The notes under the pieces are model-generated. The model saw only the letters and a program-made list of their open reading frames with translations. It did not search any database and was not told the origin of the DNA. A program made the translations under genes and the position numbers. Shown here piece by piece: positions 2,672 through 53,420 of a stretch of 64,000 nucleotides of DNA (within the stretch, counting starts at the first letter, position 1; each line of letters opens with the position of its first letter). The DNA is taken from the IMG/VR virus record IMGVR_UViG_3300028832_000004, positions 63,988 to 127,987 of that record. One strand, given 5' to 3'. Source of the DNA: a virus. Lineage: Duplodnaviria; Caudoviricetes.

Positions 2672-2784
2672 GCCAGTGACTCGGGGAAGGATCGAACTTC
2701 CGAGGATTGCGGCCCATCACAGTCGCGGCGCCTCTGCTTCCGCGACTCACGGCTTGCCAACCACCGCTCACGCAAACCACTGAC
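2672..2784 (-). ncRNA. tRNA-like RNA with non-canonical anticodon arm
   Basis: 12-bp terminal stem, D-like arm GCGG-TGGTTGGCAAG-CCGT, 8-bp stem with 11-nt loop in the anticodon position, perfect T arm GGAAG-TTCGATC-CTTCC. Confidence 0.55.
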
Positions 2785-2785
2785 A

Positions 2786-3118
2786 TCAAAAAGCGTGTTC
2801 GCCCCAATCGGCATGCGGATGCTTATGCCTGAATGCTTTGTGCCACGCCTTTCCAAACTTTGATACGTGGAACATTACATTGGTGCCGGGACCCGGCGCT
2901 TCCCTGCTTGTCATAAGCCCTTTTGCGACCAATGATTCACAAGCGAGAAAGTTATTGTCTTTGATATTGCGGTTGCATCCAAAGAAGTTTCTATAGCCAC
3001 CGGATCCCCAGCCATTATAGATCGGGTAGGAGTCGAAACCCAGGGAGTGTGTCATTACCTTAACTTCTTCGACAGAGCAGGTCACTCCATAAAAACCAAG
3101 TCGCAATCCTTTTGACAT
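2786..3118 (-). CDS. hypothetical protein
   Basis: 110-aa ORF with GAGGG RBS. Confidence 0.65.
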   Translation of the reverse strand: MSKGLRLGFYGVTCSVEEVKVMTHSLGFDSYPIYNGWGSGGYRNFFGCNRNIKDNNFLACESLVAKGLMTSREAPGPGTNVMFHVSKFGKAWHKAFRHKHPHADWGEHAF

Positions 3119-3566: not shown

Positions 3567-3640
3567 AACGCGTTACCGGACTCGAACCAGTGGCTTACCG
3601 GGTGTATCCGCCCGAGCTCTACCAACTGAGCTAAACGTGT
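3567..3640 (-). tRNA. atypical tRNA-like gene, 8-nt anticodon loop CGGATACA (Ile-GAT-like)
   Basis: ACACGTT/AACGCGT acceptor (1 mismatch), D arm GCTC-AGTTGGTA-GAGC, TCGGG/CCCGG stem, T arm ACTGG-TTCGAGT-CCGGT; no U33. Confidence 0.7.
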
Positions 3641-3980: not shown

Positions 3981-4056
3981 ATACTATTCCTTAAAATAAA
4001 TCGTTTGCGCGTGATGCCCAAGCCTAAGATGAGGCATCACGCCTTCTTTTATGTAG

Positions 4057-4129
4057 GGGCAGGAGCCGGACTCGGACCGGCAACCTAGGAATTAGTATAT
4101 TCCCTGCTCTACCATTGAGCTATCCCGCC
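4057..4129 (-). tRNA. atypical tRNA-like gene, 8-nt anticodon loop TATACTAA
   Basis: GGCGGGA/TCCTGCC acceptor, D arm GCTC-AATGGTA-GAGC, GGGAA/TTCCT stem, T loop TCCGAGT. Confidence 0.75.
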
Positions 4130-4149: not shown

Positions 4150-4430
4150 TCACTTTTCGTTCGGGAGTAGCCGAACGAGCCCTGAAGGATGCCGGGCGCT
4201 CCGTCTTCCCACCCTATTGACGGAACAGAGGGAAACTACTCCACACGGGTAATCAGCCCGTACTACGTAGCCGGTCCTGATGCAGTTTGGCCCTCCACCG
4301 AGCACTGCTTAGTCGGTAGCCGTAGCATCCGACCTACATCAGTCAGTTTTCCGATTTCCTTCAGCCTAATGCGGTCTCCAGCGCTTTGCCTCGGTCCGCT
4401 TCGCTTATCACGGTCACCTTGGCAAAACCT
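4150..4430 (-). ncRNA. large multi-helix structured RNA, unclassified
   Basis: At least six hairpins, long-range CTGAAGGA/TCCTTCAG helix and a GAGTAG/CTACTC loop pairing; no convincing ORF. Confidence 0.45.
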
Positions 4431-4435
4431 CATCG

Positions 4436-4551
4436 GGAGGTGATTAAATATACATACCAAATGCTCTACACGTTGGCAGGTGCTTCGCCCCGTCTGTGAC
4501 CTCGGCGTGCAACTTGCGTATCGGTATCCCTGTCGAAACCAAGGCACCCCC
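4436..4551 (-). ncRNA. miniature tmRNA-like RNA (no mRNA-like domain, no T arm)
   Basis: GGGGGTG-CCTTGGTTTCGACAGGG start, GCACGCCGAGG and AACGTGTAG helix-2 hallmarks, 3' CACCTCC giving G3.U70. Confidence 0.65.
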
Positions 4552-4557
4552 GATAGT

Positions 4558-4746
4558 TTAAACCTGAACCGGAGCCTGAGCTTCAGCCTTCGGAGCCTTG
4601 GCGGCCTTTTCAGCGGCCCGTTCAGCCTTGCGCTGCTCACGGAGCGGGGTCAATTCGGCGAGAACCTGCGATGTATCTTTTCCACCCTTCTTAAGGGTCG
4701 ACAGCTTATGTGTGAGCTTGCGAATCTTCAACTGCAATTCGGTCAT
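4558..4746 (-). CDS. small basic Lys/Ala-rich protein
   Basis: ATG 4746 after AAGGAG; CGTATATT -10 at about 4788-4795. Confidence 0.65.
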   Translation of the reverse strand: MTELQLKIRKLTHKLSTLKKGGKDTSQVLAELTPLREQRKAERAAEKAAKAPKAEAQAPVQV

Positions 4747-4901
4747 TTGAAACTCCTTGGTTGATATGCCAATTAAATGTCTTCTGTAATATACGGACAG
4801 CTGGACCATTTCGTCCAGCCGTGAGGTATAAGAAAATTTAAGGACTATACGGTTTCCGCTGCCCTAAATGAAATCCGCCCTCTTTTTTTCGATAAAACGG
4901 G

Positions 4902-4930
4902 GTGTCTTTTTCAAATAATGGAGCTATATT
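4902..4930 (+). promoter_or_regulatory. phage early promoter, copy 1
   Basis: GTGTCTTTTTCA-N11-TATATT; 7 copies in the window with identical spacing. Confidence 0.85.
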
Positions 4931-4973
4931 ATATTCATAGCCTGCAGGTAGCGGGCGAAATAAGGAAAGAAAT

Positions 4974-6895: not shown

Positions 6896-7137
6896 TGGGA
6901 AATGAGAAATACATAATCGGACCATATGAAAAAGGCAAAATCTACGAATGCTCTTGGTTTGACAGCGGCATGAACGGCTGTACCGGCCGTTTCAAGGCAG
7001 TCATGCGCAAAGGCCGCATTGTATTCAAGGAGTTGGACGCATCCGGGGTACATTCCCCGGATGCGTTTTATTGCATCGGAAAGGCGGAAGATCAATGGCC
7101 GCACGAACGCATACGCTTCCAACAAATTGAAGACTAG
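6895..7137 (+). CDS. hypothetical protein
   Basis: TAATG overlap with the previous stop. Confidence 0.6.
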   Translation: MGNEKYIIGPYEKGKIYECSWFDSGMNGCTGRFKAVMRKGRIVFKELDASGVHSPDAFYCIGKAEDQWPHERIRFQQIED

Positions 7138-7164
7138 TGTATATTTGGAAAACAGGAGACTTCT

Positions 7165-7701
7165 ATGGAAAAATTCACCAAAGCACAAATCGAAAAAATC
7201 ACGCAATACGCCAAGGAGCATTTCACTGTCGAAAAGGACGCGAAATGGGCGGATTCGTGGGATGTCCTGATGGATGGCTGCTTCATCACGCTTGCCCATA
7301 AGGAATTTGAAAACGAGGGCTGCGCCTACAACATCCCGGTCGGGGATCCGAAACTGGAACTCGCATTCGAACTGGATGGGGAAGTTCTCCTCCTTGTAGA
7401 AAAGGAGATTTCGAAGGTGGAAGCCTATCGCGACTTTGACAAAACAAGCGACAGCCGCGTTGCCTGCATCGGATTCTCGGAAAAGAATCAGGTGTGGACT
7501 GGCTGGTCTCATCGCGCCTACTGCAGTTTCAAGATCGGGGACGAAATCAAGAAGGGCGACCTTGCCGCGGATTCCGGTTGGAACTCCGAATACGAAAAGG
7601 AACACCCCGAAAGATGCTTCAATCTCAAGCCCGGTTTCAAATGCGAAACCCTCGATGATTGTCGCAAGGCAGCTATCGCCTACGCGATGGCAGTGGCTTA
7701 A
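7165..7701 (+). CDS. hypothetical phage protein
   Basis: AGGAG RBS, upstream GTATATT; WTGWSHRA segment. Confidence 0.75.
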   Translation: MEKFTKAQIEKITQYAKEHFTVEKDAKWADSWDVLMDGCFITLAHKEFENEGCAYNIPVGDPKLELAFELDGEVLLLVEKEISKVEAYRDFDKTSDSRVACIGFSEKNQVWTGWSHRAYCSFKIGDEIKKGDLAADSGWNSEYEKEHPERCFNLKPGFKCETLDDCRKAAIAYAMAVA

Positions 7702-10040: not shown

Positions 10041-10041
10041 G

Positions 10042-10070
10042 GTGTCTTTTTCAAACGAGGGATGTATATT
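10042..10070 (+). promoter_or_regulatory. phage early promoter, copy 2
   Basis: GTGTCTTTTTCA-AACGAGGGATG-TATATT. Confidence 0.85.
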
Positions 10071-10122
10071 TAAGGTAGGCGGCGATGTTGCCTGCCTTTT
10101 AATTAAACCGAATGAAGGGCTT

Positions 10123-16077: not shown

Positions 16078-16121
16078 TGCTTCTTTCCTTGTTGATGGGC
16101 GTTATTGCCCCGAATGATTAT

Positions 16122-16150
16122 AATATAGATTCATTTATTGAAAAAGACAC
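16122..16150 (-). promoter_or_regulatory. phage early promoter, copy 3
   Basis: GTGTCTTTTTCA-N11-TATATT on minus strand, upstream of the sigma-like gene. Confidence 0.85.
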
Positions 16151-16237
16151 TCCTATTAGGTAATTTTTCTGAAAAATTTTATAGGGACAAAGAAAAAGGC
16201 AGGAATCTTCCTGCCTTAAAATCTGAAGACTTGCGGT

Positions 16238-21740: not shown

Positions 21741-21782
21741 ATTCTTTCCTTGATTCGGCACTACCTGTGTCCTTATGACTAT

Positions 21783-21811
21783 AATATAACTTCGTTATTT
21801 GAAAAAGACAC
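21783..21811 (-). promoter_or_regulatory. phage early promoter, copy 5
   Basis: GTGTCTTTTTCA-N11-TATATT. Confidence 0.85.
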
Positions 21812-21867
21812 TGGTTTTTGAAAAAATTAGGCATATTTATAAAAGACCATAAAAACCAGGAGATTCC

Positions 21868-21942
21868 ATGCATATCAAAAACGTTTACCGCAACGAGGCG
21901 ACACAAAAGTATCTAATCGCCAGCGACGGCAAGACCACCTAG
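21868..21942 (+). pseudogene. 24-codon ORF MHIKNVYRNEATQKYLIASDGKTT, truncated member of the cargo-protein family
   Basis: AGGAG RBS; N-terminus matches the family motif; TAG at codon 25. Confidence 0.45.
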
Positions 21943-22025: not shown

Positions 22026-22058
22026 AAAAGGGCGGGAAGCAATGCGCCGCCCGCCCTA
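22026..22058 (-). terminator. terminator of the second ncRNA island
   Basis: AGGGCGGG..CCCGCCCT then TTT on the minus strand. Confidence 0.6.
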
Positions 22059-22155
22059 ATCAGTTTCATTCTTTTACCGCTACCCGCGAACGGACGGAGA
22101 AATGCTCACGCCAAGCAGAAACTGTAACAATAACCGCGTGTGAAGATGTTCGCAA

Positions 22156-22259
22156 TATTTGATGGGCGATTCGAACCTCCCACCTCCACCTTGATCCGGT
22201 GGCGCTCTTCCGTGGCGTGTTCACCTTTCGACGGATGAACACGTCTAAGCTAATCAAAT
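22156..22259 (-). ncRNA. tRNA-like RNA (loop GGATCAA) with a 28-nt hairpin inserted in the D loop
   Basis: ATTTGAT/ATCAAAT acceptor, GCTT/GAGC D stem, CCACC/GGTGG stem, TTCGAAT T loop with weak stem. Confidence 0.65.
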
Positions 22260-22269
22260 ATCACTTGAT

Positions 22270-22305
22270 GGAAGTGCCAAGTTTACGAGATCGCTTGGCA
22301 CTTCC
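22270..22305. repeat. perfect 12-bp inverted repeat between tRNA-like genes
   Basis: GGAAGTGCCAAG-N12-CTTGGCACTTCC. Confidence 0.8.
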
Positions 22306-22318
22306 GCCCGAATTTTAG

Positions 22319-22678
22319 TGGGCGCCGAAGGATTCGAACCTTCACAGTCTTACGACATGCAGGGAATCCATGGGAGCTTATCCCCATTTTATCCACTGCA
22401 TCGCCTCGCCAGCTCCATCGTTCCAATACCGCACATTTACTTCAGCAACGATATTAGCTACATATCGTTAACCTTTCTGTTATTGGCATCTTCAGTCGTT
22501 TCAGCGATTCCCGATCCGATCTACTCCAGCTTAGAGCGATTCCTTCACGGATCTACCTACTCCTTTATATGGCACTTTCATTAGGAATGACCAAGATCGC
22601 AGCTACAAAGAGCAACCAATGTAACCCACTTTCGGAGTCGTCAATCTTTCTCTTACTAGTGAATGGCGGAGAACGCCC
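22319..22678 (-). ncRNA. 360-nt tRNA-scaffolded RNA with large insertions in D and anticodon arms
   Basis: GGGCGTT/GGCGCCC-A acceptor, CGCCA/TGGCG stem closing 252 nt, ATGCAG/CTGCAT stem closing 33 nt, GTC-GTAA-GAC variable arm, GAAGG-TTCGAAT-CCTTC T arm. Confidence 0.65.
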
Positions 22679-22701
22679 GTATTTAATGCACAAGTGCATA
22701 G

Positions 22702-22778
22702 TGGCAGTTTTGGGAATCGAACCCATCATCGTACTAGCTTTCGAAAGCTAGGTGCTCTCCCGACTGAGCTATACTGCC
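22702..22778 (-). tRNA. atypical tRNA-like gene, 8-nt loop TTTCGAAA (Arg-TCG-like)
   Basis: GGCAGT/ACTGCC acceptor, GCTC-AGTCGGGA-GAGC, palindromic anticodon arm CTAGCTTTCGAAAGCTAG, TGGG-TTCGATT-CCCA. Confidence 0.75.
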
Positions 22779-22834
22779 ATAAAAGGTGACCTGACTCAGC
22801 GCGGTGCACTCTTGTCTAATCGCCTTATGTTAAT

Positions 22835-22863
22835 AATATACGTCTTTATTTTGAAGAAGACAC
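22835..22863 (-). promoter_or_regulatory. phage early promoter, copy 6, driving the tRNA-like RNA operon
   Basis: GTGTCTTCTTCA-N11-TATATT. Confidence 0.8.
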
Positions 22864-22891
22864 CGGGTAATTCAAAAAAAATCAAATTTTT

Positions 22892-23565: not shown

Positions 23566-24534
23566 TTAGGAAGGGACTCGGCTAACGGAAATAAGGGCCG
23601 CACCGGCCGGATGCTTCTCATCTATGGCAGCCTGTAACGTACGGACCAAGGCAACCCCTCGCATGGCGGTCGCAAACACACCGGAGATCGGCTGAGGATA
23701 GCCGACCGGCCAGTAGGAAACGAGATAGGCGATTTCGTCAGGGAAAAGTTTGTCTTCCGGCTTGCATTCAATCGGAACTTCGATGTGGTTGATTACCATC
23801 TTCGGCTTTTCTTTTAACTGGCATTCTCCAGCATCCGCCAGGCGACAGCCCAATACACCGCGCCTGCGAAGATATTCAATCTTCTTACGGGCATGCGCAA
23901 CATCCCAATTACAGTCCGCAAGGACAGTTCTACAAGTGGTGGCATCAGCGCCGGTCTCAGCGGACAACGCCTGAGCCATTTCATAGCGGGCACGCACGTC
24001 TGCCGTAACGGGAGCGCCGACGTCGGCCGAAATATTAATATCCAAGCGTTTGGGCGGTTCTATCTGTTCCGTCGGGGAAACTTGCGGTGTCCAAGTCACG
24101 GTATTCTTTGCGGTCTCGCTTGCAGTCAAGCGCGTCAGCGAAATGCCAAGATGCTGGGTATCGAATGCGGTCTGCAAATCTTTTGCCCAAGTCTCGACCA
24201 TCCATTCGAGGGTCGGGTTGGCTTCAACGATGTGAAGGCGGGCGGTTTCATAGTCCGACATCAAGGCGGGGGCGAGCGGATCCGCCGCATTGAAGCAGGC
24301 GCCATGATCCCACACGTCATCAAGGACGCGCTTGACAATTTCCTTCAACTTCTTGAAGTCAACAATCATACCATCCTTGTTAAGGCTTCCATGTTTGGAA
24401 GCCACCGTAATTTCGACCTCGTAGCGATGGCCGTGCAAATGGCGGCAGCGTTGAGCATATGATGTCAAAAGACGATGCGCTATCTCCAGCTCGGTGTAAG
24501 TAGTCAACTCAAGCATTCTTATTCCTTTGGGCAT
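23566..24534 (-). CDS. queD: 6-carboxy-5,6,7,8-tetrahydropterin synthase QueD with C-terminal extension containing an EF-Ts-like UBA domain
   Basis: AHRL..CRHLHGHRY..GMIVDF..DH..NPTLE..SET motifs in aa 1-150. Confidence 0.9.
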   Translation of the reverse strand: MPKGIRMLELTTYTELEIAHRLLTSYAQRCRHLHGHRYEVEITVASKHGSLNKDGMIVDFKKLKEIVKRVLDDVWDHGACFNAADPLAPALMSDYETARLHIVEANPTLEWMVETWAKDLQTAFDTQHLGISLTRLTASETAKNTVTWTPQVSPTEQIEPPKRLDINISADVGAPVTADVRARYEMAQALSAETGADATTCRTVLADCNWDVAHARKKIEYLRRRGVLGCRLADAGECQLKEKPKMVINHIEVPIECKPEDKLFPDEIAYLVSYWPVGYPQPISGVFATAMRGVALVRTLQAAIDEKHPAGAALISVSRVPS

Positions 24535-53294: not shown

Positions 53295-53351
53295 AAGATT
53301 CTTTCCTTGTTTGAGAGTTGCTTGAGGCGCTGCCTACGCCGTTATGTTTAT

Positions 53352-53380
53352 AATATAGAATCGTCTTCTGAAAAAGACAC
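53352..53380 (-). promoter_or_regulatory. phage early promoter, copy 7
   Basis: GTGTCTTTTTCA-N11-TATATT. Confidence 0.85.
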
Positions 53381-53420
53381 CCGTTTTGTGAAAATTTCTC
53401 ACTTTTTTTAATTGGCGGGC

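Follow-up and report, generated by a model that had tools for sequence, protein, structure and literature searches.

A 360-nucleotide RNA with a tRNA-like frame and a large D-arm domain in phages of the cattle gut

A non-coding RNA of 360 nt is encoded at 22678..22319 (minus strand) of the window, the whole 64,000-nt stretch of phage DNA analyzed here. The RNA is real, conserved and structured. Its predicted frame is that of a class II tRNA, in which a multi-helix domain of 259 nt stands in place of the D loop. The explanation which is favored here, with moderate confidence for the whole of it, is that the locus belongs to a small, previously undescribed family of RNAs of ~360-377 nt in cattle-gut phages, that the RNA is probably excised and stabilized by the tRNA-processing machinery and that its conserved D-arm domain probably acts in trans on a host component. 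What the sequences show is that the RNA exists, with its boundaries, secondary structure, non-coding nature, tRNA-slot context and horizontal spread; how it is processed, its stability, the action in trans and the target are those parts of the explanation which we infer.

The window corresponds to the latter half of an IMG/VR virus record of 127,987 bp bearing direct terminal repeats, and DNA near-identical to it is contained in bovine-gut metagenomes from several studies; the public runs listed for it included no RNA dataset. The RNA itself is present in independent JGI, ENA and Logan assemblies, likewise from several studies, and is therefore no assembly artefact. None of the members was matched by a family of Rfam 15, and for the RNA of the window no match to tmRNA, intron, RNase P or other families was obtained at E<=10. 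ARAGORN and Infernal made no call on the 360-nt RNA, and neither Rfam 15 nor the searchable literature holds a description of such an RNA. Furthermore, no match was found among the INPHARED phages, which were queried with the locus and its 12-kb flank, or in the GTDB genome contigs scanned for the RNA. Exact or degenerate motif scans of IMG/VR gave 0, 0, 1, 1, and 1 loci, each match being the homologue L034. A weak nhmmer match in L009 was dismissed, as it apparently lies within coding sequence. Two resemblances inside the RNA, one to a CRISPR repeat (..GCUGAAAC) and one to P4 of RNase P (GAAAGU / ACAGAA), are short and were not supported by Rfam. The sole other candidate for a tRNA-framed long RNA in the genome, at window 2677-3102(-), overlaps a 110-aa ORF and is probably due to chance.

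Four further full-length homologues and one partial homologue were recovered, all of them from bovine-gut assemblies, and their sequences were retrieved via flanking proteins and motif scans:

L020, 4792-5152, 65-kb ENA contig: full-length homologue (identical to L021), 91.7% identical to the window RNA
L023, 1160-1536: full-length homologue, the same as L025:4816-5192 (122-kb JGI contig)
L024, 6587-6956, 47-kb GenBank contig: full-length homologue
L034, 1708-2069, 139-kb IMG/VR record: full-length homologue
L069, 12106-12329: partial homologue at the end of L069

A copy in L019 differs from the window RNA by one SNP. The nhmmer E-values of the homologues range from 1e-114 to 1e-121, and the identity between members is 83-92% over the BLAST-aligned stretches. 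The boundaries of the RNA are marked by this comparison: conservation spans G1 to A73 and the following CUA, and outside this stretch the sequences are unrelated. A deletion of 173 nt, present in L020 and two Logan contigs, sets in 3 nt beyond the 3′ end of the RNA.

The five distinct full-length sequences were folded by RNAalifold into a common structure of 96 pairs with 97.5% of cells paired. Double compensatory changes were found at 23 pairs, compared with 10.7±2.1 in shuffles (0/500), a statistic which overstates independence because the known sequences, five full and one partial, are mutually related. Slid controls, in which the partners were moved by 1-3 columns, gave 2-5 pairs with double changes. 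The fold of the single sequence reproduces the frame with a z of -1.57, which is not striking, and a 7-bp closure within about 400 nt is estimated to arise by chance in about 20% of cases, so that the weight of the case rests on the comparison of the homologues.

The frame comprises the following elements, where RNA position p corresponds to window coordinate 22679-p:

22319..22678 (-): whole tRNA-framed RNA, with full-length homologues in L020, L023/L025, L024 and L034 and a partial one in L069
22672..22678 (-): 5′ strand of the acceptor stem, positions 1-7, GGGCGUU, pairing with 22320-22326
22665..22669 (-): 5′ strand of the D-like stem, positions 10-14, CCGCC, invariant in 6 sequences
22401..22405 (-): 3′ strand of the D-like stem in the RNAalifold consensus, positions 274-278, GGCG(G/A), abutting the anticodon-like stem
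22358..22400 (-): anticodon-like arm, positions 279-321, a 5-bp stem and an apical hairpin with loop GAUAAGCU
22347..22356 (-): variable-arm hairpin, positions 323-332
22327..22343 (-): T arm, positions 336-352, loop UUCGAAU
22319..22326 (-): 3′ strand of the acceptor stem, positions 353-359, GGCGCCC, and discriminator A360 (A73 equivalent)

An earlier reading of this DNA, made from the sequence only, had described the acceptor stem with A73, the T arm, the variable arm and the anticodon-like stem, and all four are retained here. The acceptor stem consists of 7 bp including two G.U pairs and is followed by A73 at 22319. Its pairs G1-G3:C70-C72 and A73 are invariant, and pairs 4-7 covary (C-G to G-C, G-C to A-U, U.G to C-G or U-A), which gives the variants GGGCGUU/GGCGCCC, GGGCGUU/GACGCCC, GGGGACC/GGUCCCC, and GGGCUCC/GGUGCCC. 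A73 is followed by CUA in 5/5 full-length members and CCA is not encoded; a C after the discriminator without a fully encoded CCA is also seen in seven of the eight neighboring tRNAs printed. The T arm is perfect in the window (GAAGG-UUCGAAU-CCUUC at 22343-22327), its stem pair A337-U351 is replaced by G-C in L020, and its 5′ strand carries a 5-nt bulge in L024. The variable-arm hairpin GUC-GUAA-GAC (22356-22347) is of the class II type, and its stem reads GUC/GAC in the window, GGAAC/GUUCC in L023, GUCU/AGAC in L024, and GUGG/CCAC in L034. The anticodon-like stem, UGCAG/CUGCA or, in L034, UAUAC/GUAUA, encloses 33 nt with an inner hairpin in the window and 32-33 nt across the family; the apical stem is AUGGG/CCCAU, UUGAG/CUCAA or CAGG/CCUG. 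All helices of the frame covary, with the exception of the invariant D-like stem. In place of the 7-11-nt D loop of a canonical tRNA (RF00005) there are 259 nt, and the 7-nt anticodon loop is absent in every member.

The D stem had to be revised. The register proposed by the sequence-only reading, 11-15/268-272 enclosing 252 nt, is that of the single-sequence MFE structure, and its 3′ strand varies (C271 to A in L023 and to U in L034). In the RNAalifold consensus, positions 10-14 pair with 274-278 to form the D-like stem, which encloses 259 nt, and the helix that follows is 172-176/269-273. The bases GGCG at 274-277 do not vary, and A278 of the window is a G in the other four full-length homologues. 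Because this helix is invariant, it escapes a covariation test, and the tandem GGCGA-GGCGR together with the two AAUCGCU copies would permit alternative registers. GCGG at 247-250 was dropped as a partner of the D stem, as two of its bases, G249 and G250, are paired to C194 and C193 in a helix that covaries.

Inside the D-like stem, the following elements were predicted:

22585..22646 (-): hairpin A, long and irregular, positions 33-94 (helices 3-4), apical UUGGUUGCUCU invariant; 20 pairs, 5 with double compensatory changes
22523..22572 (-): three short hairpins, positions 107-156, overlapping unit 1 of the tandem repeat; helices 5-7, almost invariant
22503..22563 (-): imperfect tandem repeat, unit 1 at positions 116-144 and unit 2 at 152-176 (GGAGUAG..GAUC..GGAAUCGCU)
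22425..22490 (-): domain II, positions 189-254, a closing helix including GAUGCC(189-194)/GGUAUU(249-254) and hairpin 206-235 with loop G-UAGCUA

The predicted hairpin 33-94 is very well supported by covariation, its pair 35/92 being U.U, C-G, A-U or U-A across the members; it replaced an early idea of a helix 16-21/49-54. Domain II and its hairpin are likewise supported as predicted structures, with a change from U-A to C-G at pair 191/252 and three double changes in the 8-bp stem of hairpin 206-235 (helices 10-11). For the putative hairpins between 107 and 156 the covariation support is weak, the sole pair changes being U.G to C-G at 112/119 and U.G to U-A at 146/152. Helices 5-9 are invariant in the five-sequence alignment and hence beyond covariation testing.

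The tandem repeat noticed from the sequence stands, as GGAGUAG and AAUCGCU occur in two copies each against 0.04 expected. The abundance of GGA triplets, a cue for a protein sponge, does not: 10 were observed and 8.6 are expected (p=0.33). With regard to a CsrA/RsmA sponge of the CsrB/RsmZ type, whose hairpin loops present many GGA motifs, one hairpin alone (107-123) displays AAGGA in its loop. AGCU is modestly over-represented (5 versus 1.55 expected, p about 0.013). It is found in the loop of hairpin 206-235 in 6/6 members, as the palindrome UAGCUA in four of the five full-length ones, and at the tip of the anticodon-like arm in 4/5 members; one of the three AGCU-bearing loops does not conserve it. 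These loops may permit loop-loop contacts.

The RNA is non-coding. No conserved reading frame was found among its members, and all candidate ORFs are broken by an insertion of 2-3 nt after position 42, by one of 1 nt after position 123 or by the loss of a stop codon. Two coding interpretations, a tag peptide (AAILVIPNESAI) and an AUG frame of 16 codons, were rejected, since neither is conserved.

In three phages the RNA occupies a tRNA slot within large tRNA arrays. It is located between tRNA-Glu and tRNA-Asp in L025, whose 34-tRNA array covers all 20 amino acids, between tRNA-Lys and tRNA-Val in L024, and between tRNA-Ala and tRNA-Asn in L034; in L069 it lies 3′ of tRNA-Thr. The spacers between the RNA and the tRNAs measure 6-12 nt, similar to those among the tRNAs. 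Long variable arms are normally confined to Leu, Ser and Tyr tRNAs in bacteria; in L025 they were also seen in a tRNA-Asn (7110-7195), a tRNA-Trp (892-976), and a tRNA-Cys (2135-2219), all on the minus strand and 85-87 nt long.

In the window and in L020, the RNA belongs to a cassette of about 1 kb that is preceded by a phage promoter-like repeat:

22833-22864 (-): promoter-like phage repeat at the head of the RNA cassette; 6 copies found in the window against an expectation of 0
4901-4932(+), 10041-10072(+), 16120-16151(-), 21781-21812(-), 22833-22864(-), 53350-53381(-): copies of this 32-nt promoter-like repeat, GGTGTCTTnTTCAAA..TATATTAT
22026..22056 (-): terminator-like hairpin GGGCGGG..CCCGCCC, then UUUU, closing the cassette

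The promoter and the two tRNA-like neighbors that the sequence-only reading had placed around the RNA were thus recovered, the former as the promoter-like repeat copy at 22833-22864(-). The copy at 21781-21812(-) heads the next gene, and the motif also occurs in the relatives L002 and L004. L002 lacks the whole cassette, and there a single promoter copy joins the two flanking genes. The terminator-like hairpin was read directly from the sequence and was not reported by the program hairpin scan, which covered loops of 3-8 nt only.

Several further features of the cassette and its surroundings were observed. The tRNA-like gene at 22701-22778 (-) has an anticodon arm that is a perfect 18-nt palindrome with an 8-nt loop, UUUCGAAA, and is 100% identical in L020, though the adjoining RNA differs by 8%. 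The 173-nt segment at 22143-22315 (-) contains a 12-bp hairpin and a third tRNA-like RNA (about 22156-22259), in which an acceptor-like stem is combined with a weak T arm and a hairpin of 10 bp occupies the D-arm position; because it is absent from L020 and the two Logan contigs, it was taken as an independent module. In L020, the palindromic tRNA is flanked by two non-coding stretches of about 200-225 nt (4277-4500 and 4582-4783) which have no counterpart in the window and matched no Rfam family. An ORF of 24 codons with an AGGAGA ribosome-binding site lies between the cassette terminator and the next promoter copy (21868-21942, plus strand), and L020 lacks the segment carrying it. Additionally, a 322-aa protein is encoded at 23566-24534 (-), of which residues 11-152 alone match QueD-like 6-pyruvoyl-tetrahydropterin synthase (phrog_2389), the C-terminal 170 residues being without a match.

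The carrier phages share essentially no proteins, and the RNA has therefore moved horizontally. Between the record holding L034 (G006) and this genome, one weak protein match was found, spurious ORFs over the RNA or a tRNA aside. L025 is related to G006 and not to this genome, and other relatives of the L025/G006 lineage have tRNA arrays without the RNA. From these genome comparisons, the RNA appears as an accessory module exchanged between unrelated rumen phages. No partner protein common to the carrier phages was found, because the carrier lineages share almost nothing.

Sequence constraint is unevenly distributed along the RNA. The core at positions 95-273 is the most conserved part, with 88% mean identity and 77% invariant columns, compared with 54% identity in the anticodon-like arm and 64% in the variable arm, T arm, and acceptor 3′ strand together. 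The D-arm domain is thus more conserved than the tRNA frame, which the homologues nevertheless keep, and both results agree with the proposal of the sequence-only reading that a tRNA frame carries a large cargo domain.

According to the favored explanation, the RNA would be transcribed with its tRNA-like neighbors, in the window from the repeated phage promoter and elsewhere inside long tRNA arrays. Host tRNA-processing enzymes would excise it: RNase P would cleave at G1, the 3′ end would then be trimmed and CCA would be added to A73. The tRNA-like fold would give the RNA stability. The sequence-conserved D-arm domain would be the working part, acting in trans on a host component, with the translation- or tRNA-related machinery as the leading guess for its target. 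A host target is more likely than a phage target, since the RNA family is common to phages without common proteins. The AGCU hairpin loops, including the UAGCUA palindrome of most members, may mediate contacts within or between molecules. For a tRNA-style processing there is strong circumstantial support from the tRNA slots, the tRNA-like spacers and the shared trailer. The persistence of the anticodon-like and variable arms as covarying helices suggests that the frame is more than a processing handle. A pure handle would not need these arms, which counts against the favored explanation.

The same arms lead to a reading that is considered rather unlikely, in which the frame itself is the working part. 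The RNA would then be a tRNA mimic or decoy for a tRNA-binding host factor, for example an anticodon nuclease or another tRNA-targeting defence, a modification enzyme, a synthetase or an elongation factor, and the large domain would add affinity or block turnover. Every arm of a class II tRNA persists as a helix with covariation, the invariant G1-G3:C70-C72 and A73 resemble an identity set, the cassette holds other non-decoding tRNA-like RNAs, and a spread among unrelated phages is typical for counter-defence cargo. However, sequence change is faster in the frame than in the domain, L024 has a different tip on its anticodon-like arm, no member has a 7-nt anticodon-like loop, and a defence or target gene was not identified.

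The RNA shares its size with tmRNA, whose hallmarks are G3.U70 (alanine identity), the lack of an anticodon arm and a long helix P2 closing a pseudoknotted body. As the sequence-only reading had pointed out, G3.U70 is missing: the pair is G3-C70 in 5/5 full-length members. The comparison with the tmRNA model RF00023 in Infernal, which had been suggested at the same time, gave no match at E<=10; with the same model, tmRNAs of the relatives score 144-156 bits. Among the members, neither a resume codon nor a tag or stop is conserved; the candidate tag frame at positions 76-114 is the 3′ strand of the covarying hairpin, and its stop is lost in L023 and L034. The topology differs as well, the body being closed by the D-like stem, with separate anticodon-like and variable arms. 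The one trait in common is an acceptor stem and T arm with a UUCRANY-type loop, and nhmmer found no similarity between the RNA and the tmRNAs of the relatives. By these features, the RNA is judged not to be a tmRNA.

The complete relatives G001 and G003 have intact canonical tmRNAs (156 and 144 bits, tags AAPVAQAA and AAPVAMAA), and neither BLAST nor nhmmer --max found the RNA in them. In this genome, a remnant was identified instead:

4435-4551, on to 4130 (-): truncated tmRNA (stump), RF00023 30.8 bits, syntenic to the G001 tmRNA

The stump keeps the acceptor 5′ strand, the D-loop analogue and the start of P2/PK1, with the first 64 nt or so homologous to G001, and is without tag region, pseudoknots and T arm. 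Roughly 300 nt after it, up to the tRNA at 4129, look structured. Phage DS6A is on record as having a tmRNA that has no CDS and inhibits trans-translation of the host (PMC11915505). No tmRNA was found at the syntenic site of the L020 phage, whose contig is only about half a genome. The coincidence of the RNA with tmRNA loss is suggestive, and the 2-versus-2 pattern amounts to about one evolutionary event. Near the stump, two tRNAs with abnormal anticodon loops were observed at 3567-3640 (-) and 4056-4129 (-), given as 'gata' and 'ac' by ARAGORN, the second having 8 nt in its loop, UAUACUAA; beside the tmRNA of G001 there is a comparable odd pair ('gtca', 'tt').

Speculatively, and with low probability, the RNA might represent a second natural class of tRNA-cargo hybrid besides tmRNA. 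Its matured and possibly charged end would carry the 260-nt domain into host translation or into a self-assembled RNA particle and would thereby replace or subvert trans-translation after tmRNA loss. Charging would proceed through the invariant G1-G3:C70-C72/A73, the formation of a particle through the palindromic AGCU loops.

Slightly less probable still is a direct tmRNA substitute or antagonist, a ribosome-directed tRNA-cargo hybrid taking over after the loss of the canonical tmRNA. Size class and placement among phage tRNAs are the same, intact tmRNAs are found in the two relatives without the RNA, and this genome and the L020 phage have a stump and nothing, respectively, at the syntenic site. 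Against this stand G3-C70 in all members, which implies no alanine identity, the missing resume codon, tag and stop, the covarying helix in place of a tag-like stretch, the failure of both RF00023 and nhmmer, the position of the cargo in the D arm, and the count of effectively one event, with L020 known from about half a genome.

A class II tRNA gene with an intron or mobile insertion, from which splicing yields a normal tRNA, is very improbable. Group I introns are known in bacterial tRNA and tmRNA genes (PMC11915505), and the tRNA frame and the position among tRNA genes would fit. The search for a group I intron, which the sequence-only reading had named as a check, gave no match to Intron_gpI (RF00028) or any other intron model at E<=10. 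Moreover, removal of the insert leaves a D stem without a loop and no anticodon loop, a 7-nt anticodon-like loop being absent from all members, and the L025 array already covers all 20 amino acids. Judged from these sequences, the RNA is not an intron-bearing tRNA. Finally, a functionless, decaying tRNA pseudogene with a chance fold, for which the unimpressive single-sequence z-score and the frequency of chance closures could be cited, is scarcely credible given the extensive compensatory change, the strong conservation of the core and the fact that unrelated phages have kept the RNA after its transfer.

Large, highly structured bacterial and phage RNAs of unknown function are rare, and earlier examples gave new biochemistry. 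Here the tRNA fold is used in an unusual way, in an RNA that is exchanged together with tRNA genes between unrelated rumen phages and whose appearance coincides with canonical tmRNA loss in one lineage. Gaps in phage tRNA arrays can accordingly conceal non-tRNA genes which are missed by tRNA finders. As the RNA is compact and has clear boundaries and a covariation-supported fold, it lends itself directly to probing of its structure, cryo-EM, processing assays, and pull-downs.

Among known systems, tmRNA (RF00023) is similar in its length of about 360 nt, in an acceptor/T-arm frame that holds a body of about 260-300 nt and in its place among phage tRNA genes. In contrast, the body of the phage RNA sits in the D arm, whereas that of tmRNA replaces the anticodon arm, and the phage RNA has G3-C70 rather than G3.U70, no tag frame, and retains anticodon-like and variable arms. 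The 'species 1 and 2' of phage T4 (rnaC, rnaD) are stable non-tRNA RNAs of unknown function in the T4 tRNA cluster. Compared by description, they are alike in being co-transcribed and processed with phage tRNAs, but with about 120-140 nt they are much smaller than the 360-nt RNA.

The bacterial Y-RNA-like YrlA is a non-coding RNA with a tRNA-mimicking module, some copies of which are phage-borne (PMC4201824). In YrlA the Ro-binding stem is formed by the two ends and the tRNA-like part lies inside, while the ends of the 360-nt RNA form the tRNA frame itself; Rfam families, those of the YrlA type included, did not match this RNA. ROOL and GOLLD are large RNAs of phages and prophages, often located beside tRNAs and in some cases from the rumen, which self-assemble via loop contacts (PMC5737381; bioRxiv 10.1101/2024.12.08.627333). 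This mode of assembly is a possible parallel for the AGCU loops, but ROOL and GOLLD comprise about 580-800 nt and have no tRNA frame, and the 360-nt RNA gave no Rfam match. The closest logic is that of the engineered 'tRNA scaffold' (Ponchon and Dardel), in which a foreign structured RNA is placed in a tRNA and is excised and stabilized by tRNA-processing enzymes (PMC3753655), as proposed for the phage RNA. The scaffold is artificial and carries its cargo in the anticodon stem; in the phage RNA, nature has apparently reached this laboratory design with the cargo in the D arm instead and with a remodelled anticodon arm.
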